From Promethearchaeota archaeon (GTDB taxonomy: Archaea > Asgardarchaeota > Lokiarchaeia > Sigyniarchaeales > SOKP01): 64,000 nucleotides of DNA. Shown in pieces: positions 19,350 through 54,761 of this stretch. How positions within the stretch are numbered: the stretch's first letter is position 1; each line of letters begins with the position of its first letter. The notes under the pieces were generated by a model. That model saw only the letters and a program-made list of their open reading frames with translations. It did no database searches and had not been told where the DNA came from. Where the stretch lies: contig JAHPZA010000001.1 of assembly GCA_019058445.1 (NCBI GenBank), forward strand, positions 32,001 through 96,000. The letters are read 5' to 3'. The position numbers and the translations under genes are program-made.

Positions 19350-20023
19350 TCAAAATAATCAGTTATTTTTTTACTTCCAACTTCTTCACGTAGGATTTTT
19401 TTTGTGGTTTCCCAGGTTGTTCTCACAAAGTATGGCACTTTTTTATTCTTTCTAATCCATTGCTTAAGAAAATCAGTAGTTCTTTTATCAGAGGGATATC
19501 CGGAGCCTATATCTCCATATTTCTGCTTTAACTTATCGATTATGGTGTCTCTAGTATCTTTAGCGATTATCGAAGCTGCAGAAACTATTGGATAAATATC
19601 ATCAGCTCTATGTTTAGAAATTATATTTGTTGGTTTATAGTGTAATAACATTTTTATAGCGTTTCCAAATCTTTTTTCATTTACATCTGCCGCATCTACA
19701 TAAATGACATCAGGTTGTAGTTTATTAATAATCTCTGCCATTTTTAATTCTTCTAATCGATTTAAGGTAATTTTATCTTTTTCTCGGTTATCAATTTCTT
19801 TCGCAGAAACTATTATAACCTCAAAAGAATGACAGTTCTGTTTAATTATTTGGGTTAACTGAGCCCTTTTTTTAGGGGAGAGTTTTTTAGAATCTCGTAC
19901 TCCAATTTCTTTTAAAATAGTAATTTTAGATTCATTAAAACAAACACCACATATAACGAGCGGTCCGATGACTGGTCCTCTGCCAGCCTCATCAATTCCG
20001 CATACAAGATTAGCTTTCTTCAA
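19346..20023 (-). CDS. rnhB: Ribonuclease HII
   Basis: GIDEAGRGPVIGP, DSKKL, VSAASIIAK, GSGYPSD; C-terminal PIP-box-like KKITDYF. Confidence 0.97.
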   Translation of the reverse strand: MKKANLVCGIDEAGRGPVIGPLVICGVCFNESKITILKEIGVRDSKKLSPKKRAQLTQIIKQNCHSFEVIIVSAKEIDNREKDKITLNRLEELKMAEIINKLQPDVIYVDAADVNEKRFGNAIKMLLHYKPTNIISKHRADDIYPIVSAASIIAKDTRDTIIDKLKQKYGDIGSGYPSDKRTTDFLKQWIRKNKKVPYFVRTTWETTKKILREEVGSKKITDYFD

Positions 20024-21038
20024 ATAATTCCACGAAATCCTTTTCAGTATCCATCTTTTCTAAATCTTTTAATTTAATTACAGGAACTTTAATATTATCA
20101 CTGGTTAATCTTATTTTATGATTTGATAATTTAAAATCATCATTCACAATGAAAAACGCGTTTTTATGAAAAAATTTCGCAAACGATCTAAGATGATGAA
20201 GGTTTAATTTTGCAACTTTTGTAGTGTCTTGGGAAAGTCCAGATAACACCGGATAAAATTCATCACCGGTATTTAAAACGTAATTATTCGAAGAAATGGA
20301 AAATTCAAAAGGGAGTTGTCCTTTCTTATACCAAATGGTTGAAACTCCAATATCCTCAAAAATATCTTGAAGATGTGATTCAACATCAGTAAGGTCTCGT
20401 TTTTGGGATTTTTCTTCTTGAATGAAGTTCACCTTAATTTGCCATTCGAATACGTTAATTTTTCTAAAAATTGTTTTGTCATCAAGGATTTGGAGTATTT
20501 TCTCAGCAATTTTTTGAGAAGGACGCATCGTTTCATTTTCATAAGAACATAGAGTTCGTTTTGTGACTCCTAACTGTTCAGAGATTTCCTTTCGAGATAT
20601 ACTTTTTTGTTCTCTTATAGATTTCACTAAATTTCCATCAAGGAAAATAATTTTTCCTCCTTTTCTACTCAAGCATGTAGGGTAGATATTACTATTCAGA
20701 ATCATAGATATTGTTCTACTTGAGATAAATGGCAGATCTTCTCGTAGATATATAGTATTATCTTCTAGTTTATTGTAGCGATTCTTGATTCCAATTAGTA
20801 ATGGATGACAGTCCAATAACATACATAAATTCTTTAAATTTTCAATGACAGATTCATTTAAATTATCGATATTAGGAAAAACTTTTACTAAATAAATCAA
20901 GTTATTCTTTTTTATTAAAAAGTCAACACAAAACTTAGTTTTCTTATTTAGTATATCATGAAAAGTTAAAATTTCATAGTTATTTTTCTTAAATAAGGAC
21001 TCAAGACCTTGAAGAATATTATCTACCATTATTTCCAT
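20010..21038 (-). CDS. Conserved archaeal HTH regulator (COG1395-like); chimera of element-supplied 5' part and host 3' part
   Basis: NID motif, LED..IY.R..LP.I, GG..IFLDG, Cro/C1 HTH (SRKEISEQLGVTKRTLCSYE). The first ~127 aa are paralogous to 54204-54605. Confidence 0.85.
   Translation of the reverse strand: MEIMVDNILQGLESLFKKNNYEILTFHDILNKKTKFCVDFLIKKNNLIYLVKVFPNIDNLNESVIENLKNLCMLLDCHPLLIGIKNRYNKLEDNTIYLREDLPFISSRTISMILNSNIYPTCLSRKGGKIIFLDGNLVKSIREQKSISRKEISEQLGVTKRTLCSYENETMRPSQKIAEKILQILDDKTIFRKINVFEWQIKVNFIQEEKSQKRDLTDVESHLQDIFEDIGVSTIWYKKGQLPFEFSISSNNYVLNTGDEFYPVLSGLSQDTTKVAKLNLHHLRSFAKFFHKNAFFIVNDDFKLSNHKIRLTSDNIKVPVIKLKDLEKMDTEKDFVELFEES
20659..20672. repeat. Left junction: CCT core plus arm TTCTACTCAA
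   Basis: Arm 20663-20672 matches the reverse complement of 54204-54213 (TTTTACTTAA) at 8/10. The CCT falls at the codon where protein similarity between the two gene copies ends. Confidence 0.6.
20838..20892. repeat. 55-bp direct repeat, copy 1 (1 mismatch to 54393-54447)
   Basis: ATTTTCAATGACAGATTCATTTAAATTATCGATATT[A/T]GGAAAAACTTTTACTAAA, read directly from the sequence. Confidence 0.9.
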
Positions 21039-21594
21039 TATGTGAATAACATAAATGAATAAAAAATTTTTCTATTTATTTCAAATTATTTTTTGAAATT
21101 GTTGTATATTTAAACTCTACAGATTTCAAATTTTTGAAATATTTCTTAAATTTCTAATTGTTAAATACACTCTTAAAATTAATATACAAAATAAATGCAT
21201 TAGACTAAGAGTAGAAGAAGTTTATAGCACAAATAAACACATCCTAAAAATTACCTATAAATTATTGCCTATTAATATTTTATGCATACTAAAATCAATT
21301 CATAGATGAATTAATCATATGATAAGGAATAATTAATAAATCTGTGAACAATTTAAAAAAACCAATTATACCTTTTCTTTGACATTCCTTCCAGATTCCA
21401 TAAGGTATCCCGTACATTGTGAAAAAACATATAGTAATGTATGGCTAAATCCCGAAGTGTGACCAAATCATCTAAGTTTGTAGTATCTACGAGCTTTTTG
21501 GAGATTTTCTAATTTTTTTTACAATAATCCTAGTAATATTTACAATGGGATTCCTAATTTTAAAAATATTTTACTATGAAAATTTGAAATATAA

Positions 21595-22701: not shown

Positions 22702-23277
22702 TCTTAAATCTAGATTATAAATTATATCTTTTAATTAATATTTTACCTATTCATAATTTATACATTTGAGAAAAAGACCTTCAGTCTTTCGAATTGTTAA
22801 TTACCACAAAATCCATATTCCCCTTTATATGTAAAATATCACCTATCGCGGAATGAATAAGAAGATATTATGAAGTATAAATGGATCTATTAAACTGATG
22901 ATGGTAAAACAAAAAAAGCAAAAAGGAATCATAATATTTTGCAATTAATCATCGTATTTCTTTATTCATTACTAAATGGATATTCATTTATAATAGTATA
23001 AAATATTAAGGTCAAAATTGTTCATAGATGTATGAACTATTACAATAAAACATTTCATCCTTCTATGATTTATTGTATAATCTCATCCCACAAATTTATA
23101 TGCCTTACTTCTATTTAACATTTAAGAAAGAATCAAATAATTCAGTCTTACATTGGATTTCGCTCTGTTAAGACTTTTTTGGAAGCTTAACACTCTCTCT
23201 TTTTTGCATTTTGGATTGGATTTGGATTCCTTTCTTTTCCTATTTTTTAATTAGAATTTATTTAAATAATATTGGAT

Positions 23278-23500
23278 TTTAAAAAGGGCGACTCCTTGCC
23301 ACGCAACCTCAATACAAGGTCAAAAAATAAATAGGGGGAGGAGGGCAAAATCAAAGTGTATTTTCATACACTAACCAAAAGACAAAAATCCAGGGTGTGG
23401 CAGGAGTCATAGTTTTTGGTCTAACAATAATAATCTACAATAGTATTTATAAACTCTTAAGTGAAAATATAATATGGATTGGCAATATTCATTCCTCAGG
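23278..23500. repeat. ~220-bp direct repeat, copy 1 (copy 2 at 40615-40832)
   Basis: Near-identical over the first ~150 bp, then decaying similarity through the TATA-containing flank. Confidence 0.92.
23281..23422 (-). ncRNA. Candidate ~140-nt structured small RNA, copy 1
   Basis: Closing stem GACUCCUGCCAC/GUGGCAAGGAGUC; hairpins AGUGUAU-GAAA-AUACACU and ACCUU-GUAUU-GAGGU; TTTATAAA at 23446-23453; U5 tract at the 3' end; no ORF conserved between copies. Confidence 0.6.
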
Positions 23501-39744: not shown

Positions 39745-40521
39745 TTGAATCCTGAAAAAGCTCTGAAAATTCTTACCGAATTAATAGAAGAAATAAAAAA
39801 TACTAATTATGATCAAAGGAAAAGCGTAATAGAAAAAGCAAAAATGACAGTTAGAAAAATTTTTGGAAGTAATTCTATTAATTTTAAAGAATTTAAGGAA
39901 ATTAAATATGGATTAAGGTTCCTCACTTCTAATACGCCTAAACAGAGGTTTTATGAATATTGGGAAAAAACTGATAAAAAAAATATGATTTCTAAACTAT
40001 CTGCATACATTGATGAATTAGAATTAGATATTGATGATGATATTGTAAAACCTACAGAGATTGAGCAATTATCAGATCAAATTTTTATTGTACATGGAAG
40101 AGATGAAGAAATTAAGGAAGCTGTAAAAAATGTTCTAATTAAACTTGATTTAGAACCCATTATTTTACATGAACAAGCTAATAAAGGACGAACCATACTT
40201 GAAAAATTTGAAGATTATTCGAATGTAAGTTATACGATTATATTGTTAACTCCAGACGATAAAGGATGTTTAAAAAATGAATCATCTTTAAAAGAAAGAG
40301 CAAGACAAAATGTAGTATTTGAATTTGGATTTTTTGTTGGAAAATTAAGAAGGGATCATGTTTTTATTTTATATAAAGAGTCAGAATCATTTGAAAAGCC
40401 ATCAGATATAGATGGATTAATTTATTGTAATTACGATGAAAATGGAGCATGGAAAATGAAGTTAGTTAAAGAAATGAATGCTATTGGTTATCAAATAGAT
40501 GCGAATAAATTAATATCTTAA
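39745..40521 (+). CDS. TIR-like nucleotide-binding protein (Cap12/Pycsar-type TIR)
   Basis: IFIVHGRD, PIILHEQ...GRTI.EKFE, LLTPDD, RARQNVVFEFGFFVGKL (catalytic E), PSDIDG. Confidence 0.88.
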   Translation: MNPEKALKILTELIEEIKNTNYDQRKSVIEKAKMTVRKIFGSNSINFKEFKEIKYGLRFLTSNTPKQRFYEYWEKTDKKNMISKLSAYIDELELDIDDDIVKPTEIEQLSDQIFIVHGRDEEIKEAVKNVLIKLDLEPIILHEQANKGRTILEKFEDYSNVSYTIILLTPDDKGCLKNESSLKERARQNVVFEFGFFVGKLRRDHVFILYKESESFEKPSDIDGLIYCNYDENGAWKMKLVKEMNAIGYQIDANKLIS

Positions 40522-40614
40522 TCTACTTTTCGTTTATATTCCTACAAATCATTTTCAGGAAAATTTAGTAAATTTTCATATTTTTTGATGATTTTTATAG
40601 ATTTTTTTTGTATA

Positions 40615-40832
40615 TTTAAAAAGGGCGACTCCTTGCCACGCAACCTCAATACGAGGTCAAAAATCAAATAGGGGGAGGAGGGCAAAATCAAAGTGTATAA
40701 AAATACACTAACCAAAAGACAAAAATCCAGGTGTGGCAGGAGTCATAGTTTTTGGTCTAATAATAATAGTCTACAGTAGTATTTATATACTCTTAGGTGA
40801 AAATATTAAATAGATTGGCAATAATCATCAGG
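40615..40832. repeat. ~220-bp direct repeat, copy 2
   Basis: Matches 23278-23500. Confidence 0.92.
40618..40758 (-). ncRNA. Candidate ~140-nt structured small RNA, copy 2
   Basis: Same stems as copy 1. Differences fall in loops or linkers, or change U-G to C-G. A TATATAAA box lies upstream on the minus strand. Confidence 0.6.
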
Positions 40833-41142
40833 TGCAACATTGGATTTCAAAATCCGTGTTAGATATTCTTATACCATCTAGCATTGACATCTTCTGAAAA
40901 ATTTTTCCTGATAATAAGACCATGCATAGCTTTTAAACATTAAGAAAAAATAGGAAATAATCAATAAAGATTTACAATAGTAATATATGAATTGAATCTT
41001 TTGATCCGAGAATGAATTAAAGAGAAAATACATTTAGGATATATACTAAATGATAAAGAGATGAAAATATTCTAAATCTTGACAGACTCTTATTTTATAT
41101 TTATAAATTAATATAATAACAGAGTAACAAATACTTTCAAAT

Positions 41143-41733
41143 ATGTCGAAGATTTATTATATATATAAAAATCCTGTTTTTTGTATCTTAGAAAATGAAT
41201 TTGGGCTATCTATGATTGAGATAAAAATAAATGAATTTACCAGAAGATTTTTACTACTAATCAATTTTCTTGGGAATAACACAGCCAAAAATGAGAAATT
41301 TTTAAAAACAAAGAAAAGGTTTTTGAAATTATATTATTTATCAATGAATTCAAAAATTTTAGATAAAGTTTTAGAGATCTTATCAATAGAGAAAAGTGAA
41401 GATCAAGAAAGGTTTAGAAATAAGTTAAAGGATACTTTTTTTATATTTTTACATGGTGTATATTTAAAAAATTTCGCTAATAAAATTTCGGAATCAATTC
41501 GGCTTGATTTAATCAGAATTGAAAGAGATGGCAGGTCTTTTATTTATTATTTAACAAAAAAAGGATTAGAATTAGTAAAAAGTATCATAAAAGAAAATAA
41601 TTCTTCTACTCAAGAATATATATCTAATTTGAAAAAAATGAATCCTTTAAAAGAAATCTCTACAAAAATCATAACCAATATCATAGATAAATTAATAAAA
41701 AAAAAGACTAAAGAAATCGGAACAAGGGTTTAA
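41143..41733 (+). CDS. Winged-helix protein, possible ABC-3C/Lamassu middle component
   Basis: LIRIERDGRSFIYYLTKKGLELV wing motif; abuts the SMC-like gene. Confidence 0.5.
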   Translation: MSKIYYIYKNPVFCILENEFGLSMIEIKINEFTRRFLLLINFLGNNTAKNEKFLKTKKRFLKLYYLSMNSKILDKVLEILSIEKSEDQERFRNKLKDTFFIFLHGVYLKNFANKISESIRLDLIRIERDGRSFIYYLTKKGLELVKSIIKENNSSTQEYISNLKKMNPLKEISTKIITNIIDKLIKKKTKEIGTRV

Positions 41734-43743
41734 ATGTTAAAATATATGGTTAAAAGTAATTATTTAAAAATTAATAGAATTAAAATCGAAGGTATCTGGA
41801 CTTTAGACCATGAATTTAAAGGAGGATTAAATGCAGTTATAACAGCAAATAAACATGGAAAGACTACTTTGATTCAAACAATTTTAGCAGCTATTGGTTT
41901 TAGCGATAAAAGAAAAAATGAAGCTAAAAAAAATGCTAGTAAGGTCTATTTAGAACTTTTACTTAATGATAAACTAAAAACCATCGAGATGGACACTAAT
42001 GAAACAGATAAAGGTTATAAAACATATCTTTATTTGCAGGATAACGTGAATATTGATGGTTTTGATCAGAAAAAATCTAAAATGATATCAAGAAAAGATC
42101 TTAATGGATTGATTGAAAAAGAAATAGGATTAAATCCGTATATTTATCGCGACAAAGTAAATAAAAGATATCCATTAAATAATCTAAATCAATCTTATCG
42201 AGCTTTTTATTTAATGCAAGGAAAAGCTAATGAAATAATTTCTGATTATCAAGCACAAGATATTAGAAGGACAGTTACACAAAGTTTGTTAAGATCACCT
42301 AAAGAATCAAATGTTTTTGAGGATAAAAGTACGGACTATGGGAGTCAGATAAAAGAAAAGGATAAAGAAAAGGATGCTATAATTAGATCTACTAATAAGA
42401 AACAGCACCAAATAAAAGAATATGCGATTAATATAATTTCAGATAAAGAAAAAATTGAAGAAATAGATTTTAACAAGATTGAGTCAATTGAAAAGATAAT
42501 TATTGATATTGATTCTCAAATTAACGAGATTAGCAAAAATAAAAATGATTTAATTAATAAATTAAATGATATTTATGATAATGTGAAAAACCATGAGATT
42601 GTTCTAAAAATTGAGAAATTGGTAGAAGATCTTGATAATAATAAAAATCAAACCTTTAAGGAATCATTAATATTGGAGCAAGAAATTAATTCAATATCAA
42701 AAAAAATTCAATATTATCAAGAAGAAATAATTGAAATTAATAATAAATTAGATAAAAGAGATTATTCAATCCCACTAAGAGTTCATAATCCAACAAATAT
42801 TTGTGATAGATGTGGTCGAAAATTACCTACATCAAGAATAAATTTGGAAAAACAGACTCCTCCAAAATGTGCACTGTGCGGTCGTATAAGAGATGTTAAT
42901 CTCTTAAAGCCAGAAAAATTAAAAGATCGAAGAAAAATAATAGAAGAAACTTTGAATATTCAAAAAAATAAACTTAACCACAATGAAACAAAAAATAAAA
43001 AAGTACTTCAAAAAATATTAAAAATAAAAAATTCAATTGAAGAGAAAAAAAATGAAATTGAAAATTTAAGAAAAAATCTAACAAGGGAATCGACTAGTAA
43101 AATATTAGAAGAGTATAAGAAAATTGATGATGAATTAATCGATTGGAAAGAGAAAAAGATAAATGTATTTCAATACGCTGAAAACCTAAGAGAAATACCA
43201 AAACTCAATAAAGCCATTAGCAAATTAAGAAAGGAAAAAAAAGAATATGATGCTAAATTCAAATTTAAGGAAAAAATTAGAGAAGATTGGGAAAGAAATA
43301 TTCAATTCTTCATGAAAAAGGTAGGTTTTGAAGATGAAGGTGATAAAATAATCAAGTTAGATCCTAAAACTATGCTTCCAACTATAGATGGAAAGTCTTG
43401 GAAAAATGACCTTGTGGATAATGAAAAACATTTATATAATTTAGGTATGTATTATTCTTTTTTGAAATGCTCATTGATTCATCAAATAAAATATCCTCGT
43501 TTTATTGTGTGGGATTGCTGGAAAACAGGTGAATTAGATAAAGAAAAAGCTAAGCGAATAGGTAAAATATTAAAAGATCTTAATGAAAAATATAGTAATG
43601 ATTTTCAAATGATAATATTTACTGCTGACGAAATAATAGAAGGATATATACCGCCTGAAAATGTATTAAAGAGAAAATTTACAAAAGAAAAAGAAGAATA
43701 TTTATTTTTAGAAAAAGGTGTGATTAAATATTCCAAACCATAA
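41734..43743 (+). CDS. SMC/Rad50-like ABC ATPase with Zn hook (LmuB/ABC-3C-like)
   Basis: Walker A TANKHGKTT, Q-loop FYLMQG, coiled coil with CDRC...CALC, degenerate signature LVDNEK, Walker B FIVWD, ELD, FQMIIFT. Confidence 0.75.
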   Translation: MLKYMVKSNYLKINRIKIEGIWTLDHEFKGGLNAVITANKHGKTTLIQTILAAIGFSDKRKNEAKKNASKVYLELLLNDKLKTIEMDTNETDKGYKTYLYLQDNVNIDGFDQKKSKMISRKDLNGLIEKEIGLNPYIYRDKVNKRYPLNNLNQSYRAFYLMQGKANEIISDYQAQDIRRTVTQSLLRSPKESNVFEDKSTDYGSQIKEKDKEKDAIIRSTNKKQHQIKEYAINIISDKEKIEEIDFNKIESIEKIIIDIDSQINEISKNKNDLINKLNDIYDNVKNHEIVLKIEKLVEDLDNNKNQTFKESLILEQEINSISKKIQYYQEEIIEINNKLDKRDYSIPLRVHNPTNICDRCGRKLPTSRINLEKQTPPKCALCGRIRDVNLLKPEKLKDRRKIIEETLNIQKNKLNHNETKNKKVLQKILKIKNSIEEKKNEIENLRKNLTRESTSKILEEYKKIDDELIDWKEKKINVFQYAENLREIPKLNKAISKLRKEKKEYDAKFKFKEKIREDWERNIQFFMKKVGFEDEGDKIIKLDPKTMLPTIDGKSWKNDLVDNEKHLYNLGMYYSFLKCSLIHQIKYPRFIVWDCWKTGELDKEKAKRIGKILKDLNEKYSNDFQMIIFTADEIIEGYIPPENVLKRKFTKEKEEYLFLEKGVIKYSKP

Positions 43744-45533: not shown

Positions 45534-45712
45534 ATTTGAAAAAAAGGATATTGATGAGGTTAAGGATGAGAACAGTATTCTTTTAATAGAAGAAAAATAA
45601 GGGATAATAAAAATGCTAAAGAATGAAAATTAAAGTGAAAGAGAATATTAAAACAGCATTATAAGCTATAAATATAAAAAGAACAAAAATAGCGAAAAAC
45701 AGCGAAAGACGA

Positions 45713-45868
45713 TTAGTGTGAATTTGAAGAGGATTTGTTTGCTTTTTCCTTTTCTTCTAAAAGTAAGAGAATTATGTTTACAGCTTCCGAGTACGTTTTA
45801 CATCCGTACTTTTCTTTAACCTTTTCTAACCTTTCCTTCACGTTTTCAGATACATCAATCGAAGGCAT
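45713..45868 (-). CDS. Small ribbon-helix-helix (CopG/VapB-like) regulator, 51 aa; not in the ORF track
   Basis: Hand translation MPSIDVSENVKERLEKVKEKYGCKTYSEAVNIILLLLEE...; divergent from the 46283 gene run. Confidence 0.7.
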   Translation of the reverse strand: MPSIDVSENVKERLEKVKEKYGCKTYSEAVNIILLLLEEKEKANKSSSNSH

Positions 45869-46282
45869 AATTATATCACAATAATAAAGTACCTAATTTA
45901 ATTTTACTTATTACGATTCTTATAATGATCAGAGAATTATTTAATTCTTTTTATAATAACTACCACACATTTTTCTGATTTATCTAAGAATACGTATGGT
46001 TTTTATTATTATATTAAGAATCAGCTTTTGATTATCTAAATAGTATTTTAATTAGATTACTAATGATTATAAAATAATCCATAATCTATATAAGAAGGGT
46101 TATGAAAATTGTCACAAGATTTAAATACTTATGTAATAATTATTAGACTATTGATAAAAATTTAATTCACGATTAAGTGAAGTTTTTGTCGGATAAAGGC
46201 ACAATTTAAAAGGTTTGAGGGAGTGTGAGAAGAATTTCAGCACGGGGTTATGTGAGAAATGAAACAAGAGGGGGATGTAGCA

Positions 46283-47083
46283 ATGTTTCCCAATAAAAAT
46301 CCAATAGTCAGTAGTGAGAGCAGGGGAATTGAAAAGCTACAATTTAATACTAAAGATTTTTTAGAAATAGATGAAAGGTATGAATCAGAAGTACAGCTTT
46401 ATTCAAAGAAAGTAGAGGTTTTAACCTCTCTACTATATCGAGCAATATCACTTTTGGAGTCACATCAATTACGGATAAACCCAACTCAAAAAATCTACAT
46501 AGAAACAGGAGTTCCTGCAATTAATCCCAAACTAAATACCCAATTAGCACAATTAAAGTTTTTTGAAGTCAATTCAACACTTACAAAACATATGTCAGCA
46601 TGGTTTAATCTAATTCAATTTTATTCGAGATGTTTATATACCTCTTATAATGACAAAAAATTTTTGCGAATGAAAGCTCAAACGTGGAACTCAGAGGTAA
46701 AAGACATGCACCCGCTTATGAACTTTTATTTAGGCGGACAATTCGGAGAACGAGTAAAAAACGAGGTTAGAATTTCAGATGGTATGGTAGATCACGTAGT
46801 TGATGGGATTCCGATTGAAGATAAATTGCTCAAGAAGTCCAAACACGAAGATATTGAATTAGTTATCTCTGAATTATTCCATGAACATTTAGATCAAGTC
46901 AATAGACAATCGGGGATTAGCGGATTTTCCATTTTATGCGTGGTAGATATACGCACCGATGTCAAACAGAATAGAATTAAGAGTTCTCCGTTAGCAAAAT
47001 GTTTTCGGATTTTTTTTGAGAATAATTGTTGGTATGCCACTTTTGTATTTCAGGCGTTTACCAAATCCCCCTCACAAATTTAA
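46283..47083 (+). CDS. Putative PD-(D/E)xK nuclease
   Basis: NEVRISDGMVDHVVDGIPIEDK (E...D...ExK); SD-like GAGGGGG before ATG 46283. Confidence 0.55.
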   Translation: MFPNKNPIVSSESRGIEKLQFNTKDFLEIDERYESEVQLYSKKVEVLTSLLYRAISLLESHQLRINPTQKIYIETGVPAINPKLNTQLAQLKFFEVNSTLTKHMSAWFNLIQFYSRCLYTSYNDKKFLRMKAQTWNSEVKDMHPLMNFYLGGQFGERVKNEVRISDGMVDHVVDGIPIEDKLLKKSKHEDIELVISELFHEHLDQVNRQSGISGFSILCVVDIRTDVKQNRIKSSPLAKCFRIFFENNCWYATFVFQAFTKSPSQI

Positions 47084-47105
47084 AAATAACGGTAAGGATA
47101 GAAAA

Positions 47106-47435
47106 ATGCATTTAAGTATATTAGGAGAATTACCACCGCCCAAGAAAGAAAAAAAAGAGGAAAAACACAAAATCGCCGAAATTTTTAAACAATTTGCGAT
47201 ATGCATTCGGGGCACAATTGCTAACAAATATACCTTCGCAGAATTAGAAGCAATGGCGTTAGAACAGGCAATAAGGGTAAACAGAATAAAAGAAGAAATG
47301 TTAGATGCGGGGAAGAATAGATTATACCGTTCTATTTCTCGTCTTACCAGAAGAGTAAATAGGTATAGAAGAAAGAGAAGTATATTAAGAAATGAAAGAA
47401 AAAGAATGAGGAGATTAAAGAGTAGTGTATTATAA
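47106..47435 (+). CDS. Basic hypothetical protein
   Basis: Arg/Lys-rich C-terminus. Start set at MHLS. Confidence 0.5.
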   Translation: MHLSILGELPPPKKEKKEEKHKIAEIFKQFAICIRGTIANKYTFAELEAMALEQAIRVNRIKEEMLDAGKNRLYRSISRLTRRVNRYRRKRSILRNERKRMRRLKSSVL

Positions 47436-47655
47436 AGATAAAAGATCTAAATTCAGAGCAAGACTATCAATTAAACGAGCTAAAAAGCGTGAGTGGGAAC
47501 AGAAATTAGATTTTATTATTCAAGTCGTAGTTATAGGTGGGCAATCGTGTAATCCGATTTTGGTCGAAGAATTGATAAATGAAATAAAAACTGTAAATTT
47601 GGAGGGAAAAGAAAGGATTATCGAGGATTTGAAAATAATACTTCTCGATTTATGA
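47425..47655 (+). CDS. Hypothetical protein
   Basis: 76 aa; overlaps the previous stop codon. Confidence 0.45.
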   Translation: MYYKDKRSKFRARLSIKRAKKREWEQKLDFIIQVVVIGGQSCNPILVEELINEIKTVNLEGKERIIEDLKIILLDL

Positions 47656-47806
47656 TACTACCATATTATTAACAGGCGGGGAAGGTAAAGAGTTGCTCAA
47701 ACTAAGTTTCTTATATTCGCAAGATATTAAAGAGCGGGGTAGCCTCTTTATCCCTAAAGCCGAATGTAATAAAAAATAAAAAGAGGGTATATGTAGAATA
47801 TCTAAA

Positions 47807-48385
47807 ATGACCGATTTTACCGATTCAATGGAGTTTTTTGTAGTATATCTTATAGTGAGCTTAATTTTATTCGGATTAGCTATTTTCTTCTACATTACCT
47901 ATAAGAAAGGACACGAATGGAGGGGATTAAAAGTTATCATTTGTATCCTAATTGCTATATCTCTAATATTTTACATGGTAAGCTCATTTACCAATTTAGA
48001 GGGAACACAGATCCCACCGAGAGCAGATTTTAAATTTGTATTTACCATGACTTTTTTCTTTCTATTGTTAATTTCCGTCTATTTGTTTCTTTCTTTATTT
48101 TTCAAAGAAGATGATAATTACTATTCGGAGCAGGAAGATGATACAGAAGAAAGTGAAATGGAAGATATAGAATATACGCATAAAATTAACTCTCATACAA
48201 TATCGTTTGAGCCGAATTATGAGGGTGAGAACAGTATTGAAAACAAATTTTACCCAGAAAGCGAACAATACAGATTTACCGCAAATAAAGAAGATCTCTC
48301 TAAAGACAAGGATTTACAGGAGTTAGAACAATTTGTGAATACTCTATTTGAGAAGCAAAAAAGAGGGAAAACAGATGACAATTGA
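47807..48385 (+). CDS. 3-TM membrane protein with acidic C-terminus
   Basis: Three hydrophobic helices, then an acidic linker. Confidence 0.6.
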   Translation: MTDFTDSMEFFVVYLIVSLILFGLAIFFYITYKKGHEWRGLKVIICILIAISLIFYMVSSFTNLEGTQIPPRADFKFVFTMTFFFLLLISVYLFLSLFFKEDDNYYSEQEDDTEESEMEDIEYTHKINSHTISFEPNYEGENSIENKFYPESEQYRFTANKEDLSKDKDLQELEQFVNTLFEKQKRGKTDDN

Positions 48386-48695
48386 TATAAGAGTAAGAAA
48401 TTTGGAAGACACATTATACGCAATTAATTTATTCATTGATAAACACATTTCTTATATAAATACCAGAAAAGTAAGGAAGTATTTAAATGTAGATTCGTCT
48501 AACAGGTCAAAGATTAACTTTATAGGGCGTTCTCTCCAATTTTTACAAAAGAAAGGGATATTAGAAGAAGTACATCGGAGTAAAACCATTCATTATAAGC
48601 TATTAAGGAAGGAGAAAATAGATATACAAGAATTTATCGAACAAATGGAAATACATACATCCTCTACAAAAAAGAAATTATTTTTAAAAAATTAG
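48375..48695 (+). CDS. Winged-helix DNA-binding protein
   Basis: INTRKVRKYL...IGRSLQFLQKKGILEEV....IHYKL. Confidence 0.55.
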   Translation: MTIDIRVRNLEDTLYAINLFIDKHISYINTRKVRKYLNVDSSNRSKINFIGRSLQFLQKKGILEEVHRSKTIHYKLLRKEKIDIQEFIEQMEIHTSSTKKKLFLKN

Positions 48696-48714
48696 TAGGA
48701 AGGAATTAAAAAAT

Positions 48715-49122
48715 ATGTTTGAGCAAAAAGTATTAGTAAGGATTTTAAACTGCACTAAGTTTGATTTGAGGGAAATTGAGAATTTTTGTATCAAATTCAA
48801 GAAAAAATACGGAGAGGATGTATTTGGTAAACTCATAAGTGATTTATACGAGATACGACATACATTTTTCCATTATAACAATACCATGAATGAGCTATGG
48901 TATTATCTACTCTGTCACGTTGTTAAAAAGTATATCGAGCCACAGGGAATTAAGTATTGTTATGATGAGTTTTGCGATCTGAAAGAGAACTTTACTAATC
49001 CTACATTTCGATTCAAATACTCGGATTTTAAAGATTTGGAATTGGAATTTATGAGAGCAGGGGTAAATACTAACGTTTTGCATAAATTAATTAATGATTT
49101 AAATTATTTTTTAGAACGATGA
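48715..49122 (+). CDS. Hypothetical protein
   Basis: 135-aa ORF with an AGGAAGGA SD-like sequence upstream. Confidence 0.5.
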   Translation: MFEQKVLVRILNCTKFDLREIENFCIKFKKKYGEDVFGKLISDLYEIRHTFFHYNNTMNELWYYLLCHVVKKYIEPQGIKYCYDEFCDLKENFTNPTFRFKYSDFKDLELEFMRAGVNTNVLHKLINDLNYFLER

Positions 49123-49175
49123 TAAGATATAGGATTGAATAGAATCCAATTAAAAATTTAAAAAGGTAATAACTA

Positions 49176-49952
49176 TTGATAGAAGACCAAATTAATTATA
49201 ATACTGAACAGGACAAGAATATCATTTTTAAAGATGTTATGCTCATTAATATTACCGTATCCGATTATCAGTCAATAACTCTCAGGCATAAAAAATTATC
49301 ATCCGAGAAGGAAAAAATAATGATAAACAGGGCATTAGATTTTGCGATGGATGTGTCAGACAAAGATTTTAGAGATGAGTCGGTAATTCATATCGTAAAG
49401 CCACGAGTAGAGGCAGATTTTTTTATGAAAATGGGGTTTGCTCATTTTTCGAGTGCTTCTGACCTATGCATTTATATAAAGTGTCAAAGTCTTGCTCGGT
49501 TTGAATTTTGGTGTAAAATCATCAGATCTTTTATCATAGATATTCGTTTTAAAACTATTTTCTTGGATTGGGGATATTCGGAACAGCTAAGAATCGAGGA
49601 TGTAAAAAATGAACTTGGTGATTGTATCCCTTATCTCAATACCCAATTTGAAATTGATACGTGCGAAATTGATTTTGATATTTCCGATGATTCAGACGAT
49701 ATACCCGAATACCTAAAAACCAAGCTAGATAACGATCCCGCATTAAGAGAATTTACTGAGGATTTTGCGTACTGTCCTATCTGCGGAGATGAGAATGATA
49801 TAGAAATGCTTGTGGAAGTTTACGAGGCAGATAAATCACTATTTAAAGAAAAGCGTGATAAGTTGTGTGAGTTAAAAAACCTTGATGCTGTTAGAGGAAT
49901 ACCCATCAAAATCGGGATTCCTTGTTGCGGGTGCTTCTACAACATTTTTTAA
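49176..49952 (+). CDS. Hypothetical protein with C-terminal Zn finger
   Basis: CPICG...CCGC. Confidence 0.5.
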   Translation: MIEDQINYNTEQDKNIIFKDVMLINITVSDYQSITLRHKKLSSEKEKIMINRALDFAMDVSDKDFRDESVIHIVKPRVEADFFMKMGFAHFSSASDLCIYIKCQSLARFEFWCKIIRSFIIDIRFKTIFLDWGYSEQLRIEDVKNELGDCIPYLNTQFEIDTCEIDFDISDDSDDIPEYLKTKLDNDPALREFTEDFAYCPICGDENDIEMLVEVYEADKSLFKEKRDKLCELKNLDAVRGIPIKIGIPCCGCFYNIF

Positions 49953-50122
49953 TGACTAAATGATAATTAATTTTTTGAATAAAACATTTTTAAATAACCA
50001 TTTCTAATGAGGAGAATAGGAATATTTACACACAAATTTTGAAAAATGATCAATAGAAAATATTATAAAAAATCGCTTTTCACCTTAAATTAAAAATATT
50101 ATAATGAGGTGTAAGAAAAAGT

Positions 50123-50362
50123 ATGAATAATGAAGACCAAAGAAATAAAAGCAATGATAATAAAAAGAACAACTCTATCGATGAGGAAGAACTTAAAGAA
50201 TTAATTCGGGAAGTTCTTTGTGAAGATTTCGGGATGTGTTCCATAGATCAAAAAATTGAACTATTAGACAAGCCAAAACATTATACGGGCATTATTGGAA
50301 GCAATCATTTTGAAGAAATCACAGAAGAAGAATTTAATCGAAGAAGTAAATCCAAACAGTAA
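50123..50362 (+). CDS. Hypothetical protein
   Basis: 79 aa; GAGGTG SD upstream. Confidence 0.45.
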   Translation: MNNEDQRNKSNDNKKNNSIDEEELKELIREVLCEDFGMCSIDQKIELLDKPKHYTGIIGSNHFEEITEEEFNRRSKSKQ

Positions 50363-50394
50363 AATTCCAAGATGATATTCAACAAAATTTTATG

Positions 50395-50448
50395 GACTTC
50401 AAAGTATAGACTTTAAAGTAAATCAGAAAATATGTGGACTTTGAAGTC
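50395..50448. repeat. Three quasi-palindromic 11-12-mers GACTTYRAAGT
   Basis: GACTTCAAAGT 50395, GACTTTAAAGT 50409, GACTTTGAAGTC 50437. Confidence 0.55.
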
Positions 50449-50671
50449 AACAAACTTGAGGAATACTTTATAGATCTATAAAATGTTTGATATATTTAAA
50501 GAAAAAATGTTATGGCATACATTTAAAAAGAGATTTTACTATAAAATAGGTAGAGGATTTTGAAATTTGTAATAGACTTGTTGATTGCTCACAATGAAAT
50601 TTCGTTTTAAAAAAATCTTGTTGGCAAACATTTATAAATACCCAATATAAAAATAAGGTTTGATATAGCTT

Positions 50672-51010
50672 ATGGAACGAGAAAACTTTTCACTATATGG
50701 TAATGGAGATTTGCTAACATCTCATAGATATCTTGTTTCAAACCTAAGTTTTAAAGCAAGAAACGGTATAGCTACAATCAATTTACCTTTCAGTAAAAAG
50801 TTTCATTTACGGCATAAAACACAAATCGTTCCGTTGAGTTTATCTATGATGGAGTTAAACTCCAATGAGTATAAACTATTTGAGGCATTTTCACTTTTTA
50901 GGTATCAACAAGTAGATCTAAATTTTTTTGAATATAAGTCTATACTTTTTTGGTATCAAAATTTGAAAGACGAGCAAAAGTTTATAAAGACATTGGTATT
51001 TAGGAATTGA
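50672..51010 (+). CDS. Hypothetical protein
   Basis: 112-aa ORF downstream of a TTTATAAA box. Confidence 0.4.
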   Translation: MERENFSLYGNGDLLTSHRYLVSNLSFKARNGIATINLPFSKKFHLRHKTQIVPLSLSMMELNSNEYKLFEAFSLFRYQQVDLNFFEYKSILFWYQNLKDEQKFIKTLVFRN

Positions 51011-51077
51011 ATATAAGAATAAAATTTAATTAAAAATAGCTATAAAAATATTAAAATTATAATGTGAGGGATGTAAA

Positions 51078-51392
51078 ATGTATGATAATGATAATAAAAA
51101 TAGTAAAAAGTCTAAAATTGCTAGAGTTTTAGCAGAAATAAAAGTTATTATAAGGAAAAATAAAGATTTAGGACTTTCCGAAGAGCTAATAAGGAAGCAG
51201 AATGCAAGCGACTGTTTCATTCTAGATTATCTCCGAGGCGAGAATGTTGAGTTTGAAAGCGTGGAGGAAGTTAATCAGACCGTAGAGGATCTTCGTGTCA
51301 TACTCTCTGAGGAAATTATAAGATATAAACCAGAAGGACAAATTAATAAGCTTCCTCATTGCGATTATGATCCAACTAAAATTAAACGTTAG
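51078..51392 (+). CDS. Hypothetical protein
   Basis: 104 aa; GAGGG SD; directly upstream of the 932-aa gene. Confidence 0.5.
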   Translation: MYDNDNKNSKKSKIARVLAEIKVIIRKNKDLGLSEELIRKQNASDCFILDYLRGENVEFESVEEVNQTVEDLRVILSEEIIRYKPEGQINKLPHCDYDPTKIKR

Positions 51393-51412
51393 TACGGAAA
51401 GAGAGTGATATA

Positions 51413-54211
51413 ATGGAAGATGAAAAGAAGCCAAAAAAGAGATCTCCCTTAGATAATTACGAAAGCGAAATGAAAAAAGATATGTTTGGACAAGTTGTCA
51501 AAAAGAAAGCAGGAGACACACCGAAAAAGCAGGAGGCACAACAAAAGAAAAAAACCCCTTCAAATTCATCCCCGCTAGACACATACGAAAGCAAAATGCT
51601 TCAAGATAAAGCTTCTACGGTTGTAAAAACACCAGATAATAATATTTCGATTGGACAGGGATACTGTTCAAATGAATCTATTTTAAATGCGTATGAAACA
51701 GAAATGTTAAATCAACACGTTTCGAACACCTTAGATCCTAATCGATCTGGAAGTAAGAAACCGAATAAAAAGAAAGCTCCATCTGACGAATGGAAAATCG
51801 TCATTTATGAAGCAGGATTAAAATATATAAGAGCATTAAAAGAGAACTTATATATCGATGACAAAATTATTAAATTGATTACTAGCAAGAAAAATATTTC
51901 AAAAATATTTAATCATCTCTTCATAATCTTCAATGAAAAGAGAGGCAGAAGAACTTTAGGTGTATTTTTACTTATTTTTTATGGTTTTTATGATTCTGAT
52001 AATTTTGAGGATTTACTCAACAAATTAAAGGAATTTTCAGATATGAGTTATGATAGACTCTCAGAATATGTTAAGAAACTGATTGATGACTTTTACGAGG
52101 TCACTGGTCAAGATCTTTATCTTATATGGATGGAGAAAGCGAAAACACAAGAACTTGAAAAAGCACAGAATTTCAAGGAGTTAATTAATAATGATGTTAA
52201 TATAATTCCAAATGAAAGACAAACTTTAGTGAATAACAAAATGGAAACACCAAACATAAATATTCCTAATTTTCGAGTGAGAGTAAAAAACCATTTCGAT
52301 TATATTTTAAGTTCAATTGAATGTACATCTAATCAAAAAGAAAATATTTCACTTAAATCTACCAATATACTAAAGGAGTTTATTTCGAGAGCAAAAAATA
52401 ATGAATTTACTATCTCTAGTAGAGCAGATCCTAAAATAATTGCTACCAGTATAGTGTATACAGCAATCGTATCAAATGAAAATATGCCAGAGATTAACAT
52501 GACTCAAGTAGCTAAATTAGGAGGTATAAAATCACCAAGAATTACATATTACTATAATATATATTTTAGAGAATTGTATCCTCGAATAACGTTTGACTCA
52601 ACCGTATACAAATTAACACCGATTAAATTAATTTTTTCGTTCTATTTTTTTCAACTGCTTTTAAATAGAAATATTAAGTTTTCCAATCAAATTCAAATAA
52701 TAAAAAAGGATATTTTGAATAACACAAATCTTCCAAAAGAATTAGATGAGGTAAATGTTAGAGAACTCCAAGAGATTGCGAAAAATTATCCCGATGTTTT
52801 TACTAAATATTTCAGCGATATGTTCAATATAGTGAGATATTTAATGGAATTAGCTACACTCTATAGAATAATTGGTGCTTCTATAAAAATCCTACCAATC
52901 GCAAAAATGTTTCATAAGAGAGGTATTAATTTAACACAAACGGTTGACGGTTTTCATCGATCTTTAACAGAAATTTTCGATTTTTTAAAAGAAAAGAATT
53001 TTAAGTTTTTTCCTAAACGAGTAGAATCAACAGACACTCCCAAAAAAGAGAGACCTGAGAAACAACGTCAGATGAAAAGAATTGTTGGAACAAGAATTAA
53101 ACTATATATAATAAATCATATTTATAACGGGAAATATTTTAAAAAAGGAAGAGAAGGCTGTCCAAAATGCTTGAATAAGGGTTTAAAAACGGATATTACT
53201 AGGATTAAGGGTTTGGAATTCCACCATCCTACTGAAATGAGAGAGATGCAATATACTGCGGAAAATCTCTATCAGTTATTTATTAACAATCAGCTTAATC
53301 CCTATTTTCTAGACGATCTGATAGAGGCAATGCAGAATGAAAAGGTACAATTATTATGTACTAACCACCATAACTTACTACATCATGAGGATTACCATGA
53401 TTTTAAATACTTAATTAATTGGGCAAACATATTTTCTTATCCAGCAGAGATCATCCGCTTATTAATCAGAGTTGCGGTAGATAATTTTCATAAAACTAAA
53501 GACTTAACTATTGACGAAAAAAAAGGGAAGCGAAGAAATTTACGATCTAAAATAAAGAAAAAATATGTTTTAGAGTTTTTTAATGGAAGATATTGCCCTG
53601 CTTGTGGAAAATTCAACACATTGGATCATTTAACAGCATTCCATTTTAGTCATATCGATCAACGTAACGAAGATATTGATATTCTTAGATTATTTCGAGA
53701 TAAATCATGTTCTAAAATAGTTAAAGCATTAGTAAATGAGGGTGGTGGATTTGTTTGTGGAAATTGTCATACAGTTTTTCACTTTGATAAATATATCCCC
53801 CTTTTAGAAGAGATTTTTGAGGATAAAGCAATAATAAACAATATTATAGAAGATTATGAAAATGTCAGAGATAAATATTCCCCTATATATAACGCCTCAG
53901 TTGGAGACCCATTAAAAACATCCAAAGCTCAGTACGGCAAGTTTCAAAACTATCTAATGTCTATTTATGCAATTTCAAATTCTGGTAATGACGTTACACA
54001 TTCTACTTTAAGCGAATATATGGGGTTGGCAATACCATCTATATTCAAGTTTTTTAAACAAAATAAGAAGCTAGTTAGCAAGTATATAGATATTAACATA
54101 GGAAGTTCAGGTTGGAACGGAGAGGAAACTAAATATTCTTTAAATGCAGACGGAGAAGAACTAATAAGGGTAATTAATCACTTTAGGGACTATTTCAGTT
54201 CTATTAAGTAA
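51413..54211 (+). CDS. 932-aa protein: TFB-like cyclin/HTH repeat, two Zn-binding HNH-like domains, C-terminal winged helix
   Basis: ADPKIIATSIVYTA...INMTQVAKLGGI...ITYYY resembles TFB repeat 2; CPKC..LEFHHP..LLCTNHHNLLH; CPAC..FHFSHI..FVCGNCHTVFH; VTHSTLSEYMGL...YSLNADGEELI. Confidence 0.7.
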   Translation: MEDEKKPKKRSPLDNYESEMKKDMFGQVVKKKAGDTPKKQEAQQKKKTPSNSSPLDTYESKMLQDKASTVVKTPDNNISIGQGYCSNESILNAYETEMLNQHVSNTLDPNRSGSKKPNKKKAPSDEWKIVIYEAGLKYIRALKENLYIDDKIIKLITSKKNISKIFNHLFIIFNEKRGRRTLGVFLLIFYGFYDSDNFEDLLNKLKEFSDMSYDRLSEYVKKLIDDFYEVTGQDLYLIWMEKAKTQELEKAQNFKELINNDVNIIPNERQTLVNNKMETPNINIPNFRVRVKNHFDYILSSIECTSNQKENISLKSTNILKEFISRAKNNEFTISSRADPKIIATSIVYTAIVSNENMPEINMTQVAKLGGIKSPRITYYYNIYFRELYPRITFDSTVYKLTPIKLIFSFYFFQLLLNRNIKFSNQIQIIKKDILNNTNLPKELDEVNVRELQEIAKNYPDVFTKYFSDMFNIVRYLMELATLYRIIGASIKILPIAKMFHKRGINLTQTVDGFHRSLTEIFDFLKEKNFKFFPKRVESTDTPKKERPEKQRQMKRIVGTRIKLYIINHIYNGKYFKKGREGCPKCLNKGLKTDITRIKGLEFHHPTEMREMQYTAENLYQLFINNQLNPYFLDDLIEAMQNEKVQLLCTNHHNLLHHEDYHDFKYLINWANIFSYPAEIIRLLIRVAVDNFHKTKDLTIDEKKGKRRNLRSKIKKKYVLEFFNGRYCPACGKFNTLDHLTAFHFSHIDQRNEDIDILRLFRDKSCSKIVKALVNEGGGFVCGNCHTVFHFDKYIPLLEEIFEDKAIINNIIEDYENVRDKYSPIYNASVGDPLKTSKAQYGKFQNYLMSIYAISNSGNDVTHSTLSEYMGLAIPSIFKFFKQNKKLVSKYIDINIGSSGWNGEETKYSLNADGEELIRVINHFRDYFSSIK

Positions 54212-54216
54212 AACCT
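54204..54216. repeat. Right junction: arm TTAAGTAAAA plus CCT core
   Basis: Inverted partner of 20663-20672; contains the stop codons of both the 932-aa gene and the truncated regulator. Confidence 0.6.
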
Positions 54217-54392
54217 CTGCGAGCGAGTATGTGCGGATATTTCTGTTCTTTGAGTACATTCTCTAACGTCTTTAATGTTATGAAGGGTAATTCCTCTCTT
54301 ATATAAATTGTATTATCTTCTAGATTTTGATATCTGTTCTTTATTCCGATTAAGAGTGGTTTTGAATTTAATAAAGCAGACATAAGTTTTAT

Positions 54393-54447
54393 ATTTTCAA
54401 TGACAGATTCATTTAAATTATCGATATTTGGAAAAACTTTTACTAAA
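54393..54447. repeat. 55-bp direct repeat, copy 2
   Basis: 54/55 identical to 20838-20892. Confidence 0.9.
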
Positions 54448-54761
54448 AAGATGGAATTATCTTTTTTTACCAAAAAATCAAAACAAAACTTAGTTCTTTT
54501 GGTAGATTCCTCGAAATGAAAGGTTTCGAAATGTTTTTCACTTAAGAGGGCAGCAATTCTTTGTATTATGCTATCAACTGTCAATATCCTAATAGTAACA
54601 AGCAAAATCTTATAAAAAAGTTTTTCTGTTTAAGGTAATAATATTAGTTGGTTTATTTCTAATCAACTATTAAAGTAGAATCCTAGTTTTTCGCATCATA
54701 TTTACTCGTTAATTTTTTTATTAAAAATTCATTTTAATAAATATTTAAAAATAGGTAAAAG

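Follow-up and report, generated by a model that had tools for sequence, protein, structure and literature searches.

Which activity split a regulator gene in this Lokiarchaeal chromosome and joined a foreign copy of the missing half to what was left of it? The window considered here, the whole 64,000-nt stretch that was analysed, is located in a 4.6-Mb genome. In four relatives (G038, G032, G025, and G017) a regulator gene with HTH_3 and PDDEXK_19 domains directly adjoins the AdoMet synthase gene, and this intact arrangement represents the empty site. The element is thus optional at a fixed locus. In the window the regulator is in pieces, and an uninterrupted reading frame of 932 aa ends beside one of them:

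20010–20651, minus strand: 3′ half of the regulator, of host type and continuing the frame of the foreign half (82–87% at the amino acid level to G038/G032)
20652–21038, minus strand: element-borne foreign 5′ half, codons 1–129, with the recoded junction motif LSRKGGK (53–55% at the amino acid level to G038/G032)
21039–51412, no strand: AT-rich cargo of ~30 kb between the foreign half and the nuclease gene, with defence-type genes (HEPN, TIR, Lamassu-like LmuB/C, AAA ATPase)
51413–54211, plus strand: predicted homing endonuclease gene, 932 aa (from ORF, alignment, model, and dN/dS)
54214–54605, minus strand: stranded host 5′ half of the PDDEXK_19/HTH_3 regulator, ending at RRG|GG, the left junction and predicted cut site (86–89% at the amino acid level to the sisters G038/G032)

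The full-length regulator copy (21038–20010) sits 33 kb from the stub and is chimeric, with a foreign 5′ part and a host 3′ part that cross over between about 20651 and 20550. The foreign half groups with nuclease-linked alleles (support 100/99), and its placement with host halves was rejected (AU p 4e-6). At the other end, the stop codon of the 932-aa frame (54209–54211) and the end of host-like sequence (54214) are separated by 2 bp, as the first-pass annotation had noted. At this RRG|GG junction two host glycine codons give way to element-borne sequence. A 2323-nt contig from a sample that is probably the source spans the junction with no differences, and no empty-site branch at 54214 appears among the contig matches listed. 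Among the sequencing runs listed for the searched part of the window, none is an RNA run. GC content falls from about 0.35 to 0.19–0.32 between 21 and 54 kb.

The structure model of the 932-aa protein is confident from residue 281 onward, and the protein is laid out as follows:

51413–52252, plus strand: variable N-terminal region, aa 1–280, without family conservation (alignment; pLDDT mostly below 50)
52259–52591, plus strand: single TFIIB/cyclin-fold repeat, aa 283–393 (structural match)
53159–53383, plus strand: HNH unit 1, aa 583–657 (C583, C586, H604, H605, C649, H652, H653, H657)
53594–53782, plus strand: HNH unit 2, aa 728–790 (C728, C731, S746, H747, C782, N784, C785, H786, H790)
53924–54208, plus strand: winged helix-turn-helix, aa 838–932

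The strand–strand–helix arrangement of each HNH unit carries a CxxC, a histidine after strand 1 and, in the helix, Cx(N)(H/C)H. Across 73 sequences, with identities down to ~20%, eight positions of this pattern never vary (C586, H605, C649, C728, C731, H747, C782, and H786); position 746 in unit 2 is Ser in the window protein and His or Asn in 63 of the 73. A Pfam search with the single 932-aa protein returned nothing significant, while Pfam HNH matches 19 of the 73 family members (best E 4.5e-6) and a PHROG HNH family matches residues 706–804 (E 3.8e-5). Atlas HNH models align at TM 0.50 across both units and at 0.70 (by the match) across unit 2. The two HNH-like units that had been read from the letters are upheld by the invariant residues and by these matches; per-domain comparison with solved structures recovers the cyclin and winged-helix domains, and PDB fold searches with the two-HNH model gave helical noise and weak Cap5 and Cas9 HNH rows. 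The catalytic-type histidines and zinc-type cysteines of HNH, a known homing nuclease family, are therefore intact, and activity is predicted from the sequence.

The terminal winged helix, likewise proposed earlier, matches MarR/DtxR types (residues 838–932, Z ~10). For the segment described as TFB cyclin repeat 2, the fold stands and the repeat number does not: the top solved match of residues 287–393 is archaeal TFB 1ais_B (Z 12.8, rmsd 1.9, 95 residues), and the alignment falls on TFB repeat 1 (1108–1206). Likeness to repeat 2 comes from a DPK motif and a weak HMM match to residues 244–293 of a 303-aa protein of the genome (E 0.026), so the label is not settled. BLASTP of the 932-aa protein against the TFB at position 151 gave no significant match, and Pfam TFIIB and zinc ribbon models found none; with one cyclin repeat only, the protein lacks the zinc ribbon and two repeats of TFB/TFIIB. 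The repeat is probably an accessory DNA-binding module, and it is missing from many family members.

A promoter-targeted nuclease or transcription hijacker working through this repeat, offered earlier as an alternative, would suit the top structural match and the fact that most insertions lie in or close to the 5′ part of genes. We regard it as very unlikely because the breakpoints fall in conserved coding motifs, 190–900 bp within coding sequence, and because many members at target loci do without the repeat; the single repeat and missing zinc ribbon of the window protein also speak against it.

With a threshold of E 1e-30, the family profile recovers 111 cluster representatives. Within the host family, 61 of 134 genomes have a match, some of them several copies; among ~265 other genomes of the phylum there are 2, both with weak matches. 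Nearly all of the ~50 homologue loci lie within one Lokiarchaeia family, the named protein relatives are from Promethearchaeota (Lokiarchaeia-type Asgard archaea), and no relatives of the 932-aa protein were found in the viral contigs searched. A more distant, shorter tandem-HNH subfamily without the cyclin repeat (L167–L195) is common in the same host family, and neither introns nor stubs were detected near it.

Homologues sort by the gene that they flank. In a tree of 31 labelled loci, nine flanking-gene labels require eight changes, which is the minimum (500 shuffles gave at least 18); kinship of the hosts inflates this statistic, although the alcohol dehydrogenase (ADH) and chelatase clades each span genera. 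As the genomes are kin, locus counts do not represent independent events. We considered whether the window protein is a relic that has lost its activity or been domesticated, with vertical inheritance at every locus. Decayed copies are known (G047, G068, and G005 C36), and the 61% identity to the G005 homologue is near host divergence. This possibility appears very remote in view of purifying selection (dN/dS 0.14–0.31 per domain, vs. two relatives), the absence of the gene from sister genomes, and the occupation of the same target in different genera (ADH in g11 and g2; chelatase in g1, g2, and g11).

All four nearest relatives of the window protein (one clade, support 100) flank the same regulator. 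In G005 and G049 the nuclease gene lies just upstream of the regulator, in tandem, with a 48-codon stub farther up; the foreign half could be shown in G005. The L261 locus is divergent and has a foreign half with the same LSRKGGKII ~950 bp from the nuclease, i.e., the window layout without the 30-kb cargo, and at L262 a 37-codon host stub converges on the nuclease stop. The position at the element end had been likened to that of an integrase; among the relatives the nuclease gene may be upstream of its target in tandem, diverge from it or converge on it, so the end position is not a rule. The RRGGG-type motif is kept in 28 of 28 nuclease-free alleles and changed in all three nuclease-linked alleles, whose foreign halves form one clade (100/99) separate from those 28. 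This shared clade, at the same regulator in the nearest relatives, indicates that nuclease and rescue half travel together. Stub lengths differ (131, 48, and 37 codons), so only the window stub marks the motif.

G005 shows further rearrangements. Its AdoMet synthase is also duplicated (L001:2185–5599), with a CitMHS transporter between the copies and without a nuclease of its own; the 70-codon stub is 96–97% like sister genomes, and the N-part of the full copy 84–85%. A 30-nt BHB-like intron lies in the DEAGR|GP motif of its RNase HII gene (L001:11133), 1.2 kb from the nuclease. RNase HII was rejected as a target in the window, where the gene is uninterrupted and host-like.

The window island has a counterpart, to which it is linked by two segments:

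45644–48846, plus strand: 3.2-kb module, a 97% duplicate in the second island (C9:189279–192480)
21132–21284, no strand: end sequence, 73% match to the far end of the second island

This second island (G000 C9:181424–214176; L113, L114, and L124) is 32.7 kb long, has the same polarity, lacks an integrase, and carries a paralogue of the nuclease (35% identical) close to one end. It is inserted at NPP|W of an N6-methyltransferase gene that is whole in G032, with 5–6 bases lost, and no rescue half for the broken gene was found in it. It carries, among others, Type ISP, OLD-like, and radical SAM genes.

The shared polarity and end sequence of these two ~33-kb islands, and the loss of 5–6 host bases at both, are what one would expect from an integrase- or transposase-like enzyme that inserts the element at the target motif, the replacement half being the usual attP-borne repair piece. 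It also fits that no recombinase is encoded within the island: we found neither a tyrosine nor a serine recombinase there, and the two tyrosine recombinases of the genome are elsewhere. The first-pass annotation had named a recombinase acting on the junction as evidence against a nuclease, and none is present in the element. A repeat search of the window island turned up neither an att core nor terminal repeats, and the target is not duplicated. A 3-bp AGG crossover core was rejected: the GGK codons past the overlap recur in L261, which marks them as part of the element, and one crossover at this place would fail to restore the host site. Variable position and orientation of the nuclease relative to the junction, together with stub-free loci that fit gene conversion, likewise argue against an integrase-like enzyme, and to our knowledge HNH domains do not join strands. 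We therefore consider it unlikely. The e14 element and phage 21 in Escherichia coli icd are integrative elements that restore a split gene by means of a tyrosine integrase and an att core; the window island resembles them as a large island within a coding gene with a replacement piece, whereas neither the integrase nor the core was found.

The 3.2-kb module common to both islands holds a second nuclease-like ORF (46259–47083, 274 aa), which resembles restriction-endonuclease clusters of the PD-(D/E)xK type. It could have made the insertions of both islands, so that part of what shaped the large islands may be an activity other than that of the 932-aa protein. Elsewhere this ORF forms the C-terminal part of larger ORFs. 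Contig depth over 45600–52200 is ~2x that of the flanks in run X1, and variant alleles at 49–51.4 kb that are not in the assembly possibly stem from another copy of this module. A ~240-bp repeat at 23235–23493 and 40573–40849 has further copies on C9 and C4.

The ~30-kb cargo, absent from the compact relative L261, is rich in defence genes, among them a Lamassu-like LmuC/LmuB pair (41143–43743) and a TIR gene (39745–40521) that matches PDC-S35. The 932-aa protein might itself be cargo, namely an McrA-like defence or restriction nuclease, with the junction made by something else. McrA is the sole solved-structure hit by sequence (E 0.014), and one paralogue adjoins a Type ISP methylase gene. 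This explanation seems improbable to us, given that most homologues stand alone in core operons without defence genes, that clades follow single host genes, and that it leaves the link to introns and chimeras unexplained.

That link is seen in other clades, where homologues co-occur with split host genes as the homing proposal had anticipated. With the regulator, three loci have a native part that is stranded and host-like and a replacement that is foreign and in frame. In a zinc ADH gene the stub is 95–98%, exon 1 70–72%, and exon 2 92–93% identical to closest relatives, and the stub ends at CGI. In a TOPRIM-type gene the values are 83–89% (stub, ending at DAD), 72–77% (N-part), and 86–97% (C-part). 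A stub in a third gene ends at VPI. The names chelatase, MoxR, and TOPRIM are our presumptive assignments from motifs.

Where the nuclease lies upstream of a ChlI/D-like chelatase, ADH or MoxR-like gene, a 29–32 nt insert with a stop or frameshift interrupts a conserved motif in 6/6, 4/4, and 5/5 cases (15/15 in total, two being nuclease remnants). Background frequencies, counted from open-frame lengths with most inserts then read directly, are 10/122 genomes for chelatase, 7/67 for ADH, and 4/103 for MoxR-like genes (4–10%). No nuclease was found beside uninterrupted alleles of these three genes. All 27 inserts fit a bulge-helix-bulge (BHB; a 4-bp helix, two 3-nt bulges, and frame-restoring cuts): the standard cuts restore the frame, and the helix pairs at 4/4 positions in 22 and at 3/4 in five. 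Inserts at the MoxR site show compensatory helix changes, and the genome has a splicing endonuclease gene. The inserts are thus of the EndA-spliced BHB intron type, with splicing predicted. Selenocysteine read-through was rejected for the split neighbour genes, whose features are 29–32 nt insertions.

The host ADH stub of G046 stops precisely at the position that the intron occupies in the imported copy, which would tie the break to the intron site. Some introns have no nuclease beside them, as would follow from loss of the nuclease; the window locus has no intron. With convergent loci left out, linked alleles are altered at the conserved site throughout, by recoding in 3/3 (vs. 0/28 nuclease-free alleles) or by introns in 15/15. 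Introns and stubs were the features scored at many convergent loci, DUF1667 and CutA among them, and at the MoxR paralogue, and neither was seen there.

Several additional loci were recorded. A third paralogue (C9:269750–273354; G000, L074) is paired with a 222-aa partner ORF, which accompanies many family members; the chelatase gene downstream of the two contains a 30-nt BHB intron. At L095, L163, and L265 the nuclease gene faces a full-length, divergent aminoacyl-tRNA-synthetase-like or PUA gene in convergent orientation, and a host-like 3′ fragment lies inverted beyond the nuclease. More short stop-containing inserts were seen in genes directly downstream of nuclease homologues (L165:about 7920, L166:5291, and L160:327).

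Known systems share parts of this pattern. Fungal mitochondrial mobile ORFs form hybrid genes in Allomyces macrogynus atp6 and in Glomus atp6, atp9, cox2, and nad3 (PMC3630166); there, as in the window, a host gene has taken in an endonuclease gene together with a foreign substitute for one part, and its own version of that part is stranded. Those ORFs encode GIY-YIG or LAGLIDADG enzymes and replace the 3′ end in an organelle genome, whereas the window has a 930-aa tandem-HNH protein, a replaced 5′ half, and 30 kb of cargo in an archaeal chromosome. In phage intronless homing by the free-standing T4 endonucleases SegF, SegG, and the HNH enzyme MobE (PMC2988022), the optional nuclease gene is likewise a neighbour of its target, cleavage occurs at some distance from the nuclease gene, and the linked allele resists it (both as predicted here). 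The T4 enzymes are small single-nuclease phage proteins with full replacement and no stubs, and the window family has no Pfam or fold match to them past the generic HNH motif. Collaborative homing of F-CphI with an ORF-less psbA group I intron (PMC6083498) likewise joins a free-standing nuclease and a neighbouring gene that has an intron in a conserved site; in the sister clades, not at the window locus, the partner is a 29–32 nt BHB intron in an mRNA, predicted to be protein-spliced, rather than a ribozyme. Archaeal tandem HNH proteins with PF18780 (HNH_repeat) have a similar predicted two-unit structure (TM 0.50) and are ~300 aa long, whereas the window family has no PF18780 match and adds cyclin and winged-helix domains. 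By sequence criteria, the family has the testable features of free-standing homing endonucleases and matches no described family. Neither this family nor any such cassette from an Asgard archaeon is described in the literature that we searched, which leaves out most subscription journals.

Overall, the 932-aa protein is probably a free-standing, target-specific homing endonuclease of a new tandem-HNH family, with cleavage predicted. Against this reading stand the weak HNH rows among solved structures, the unequal regulator stubs, the convergent loci and MoxR paralogue at which neither intron nor stub was seen, the kinship of the genomes, the second island that carries no rescue half, and, as its main loose end, the second nuclease-like ORF. 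The earlier suggestion of a homing nuclease with a recoded allele gains from the HNH fold and from homologues beside split or protected host genes. The two HNH units may cut both strands, as was also proposed; unit 2 departs from most members in having Ser746. The window member would recognise the regulator and break it at or beside the conserved RRGGG codons, and the break would be repaired from a donor with the nuclease and the recoded 5′ half. On the 3′ side, homologous recombination may have yielded the observed chimeric, working gene. On the 5′ side, recombination farther upstream would leave no stub, and joining without homology would strand the host half as in the window. The recoded motif would block re-cutting; in clades that target other genes, the BHB mini-intron found at the motif may protect in its place. 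The 30-kb defence cargo between the two parts of a compact cassette would then be a hitch-hiker.

A wider reading, to which we give slightly less than an even chance, is that a Lokiarchaeia-restricted family has switched its target to at least nine different core genes and is actively moving DNA of three kinds: mini-introns of the tRNA type, which enter mRNA genes; halves of genes, which are exchanged between lineages; and 30-kb defence islands, which are carried along without an integrase. The tandem HNH would then act as a single-chain, retargetable double-strand cutter. The invasion of protein-coding genes by introns has puzzled biologists for a long time, and for BHB introns in coding regions crenarchaeal cbf5 was long the main known example (PMC2738675). 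A named enzyme family with target motifs and paired empty and protected alleles makes nuclease-driven intron spread testable in vitro, and its members are naturally occurring large-site nucleases for which targets are predicted. The locus also brings chimeric core genes and integrase-free island mobility to a chromosome of the archaeal group nearest eukaryotes. Together, the nuclease relatives and their introns suggest a route for the spread of introns into protein genes in the closest prokaryotic kin of eukaryotes.
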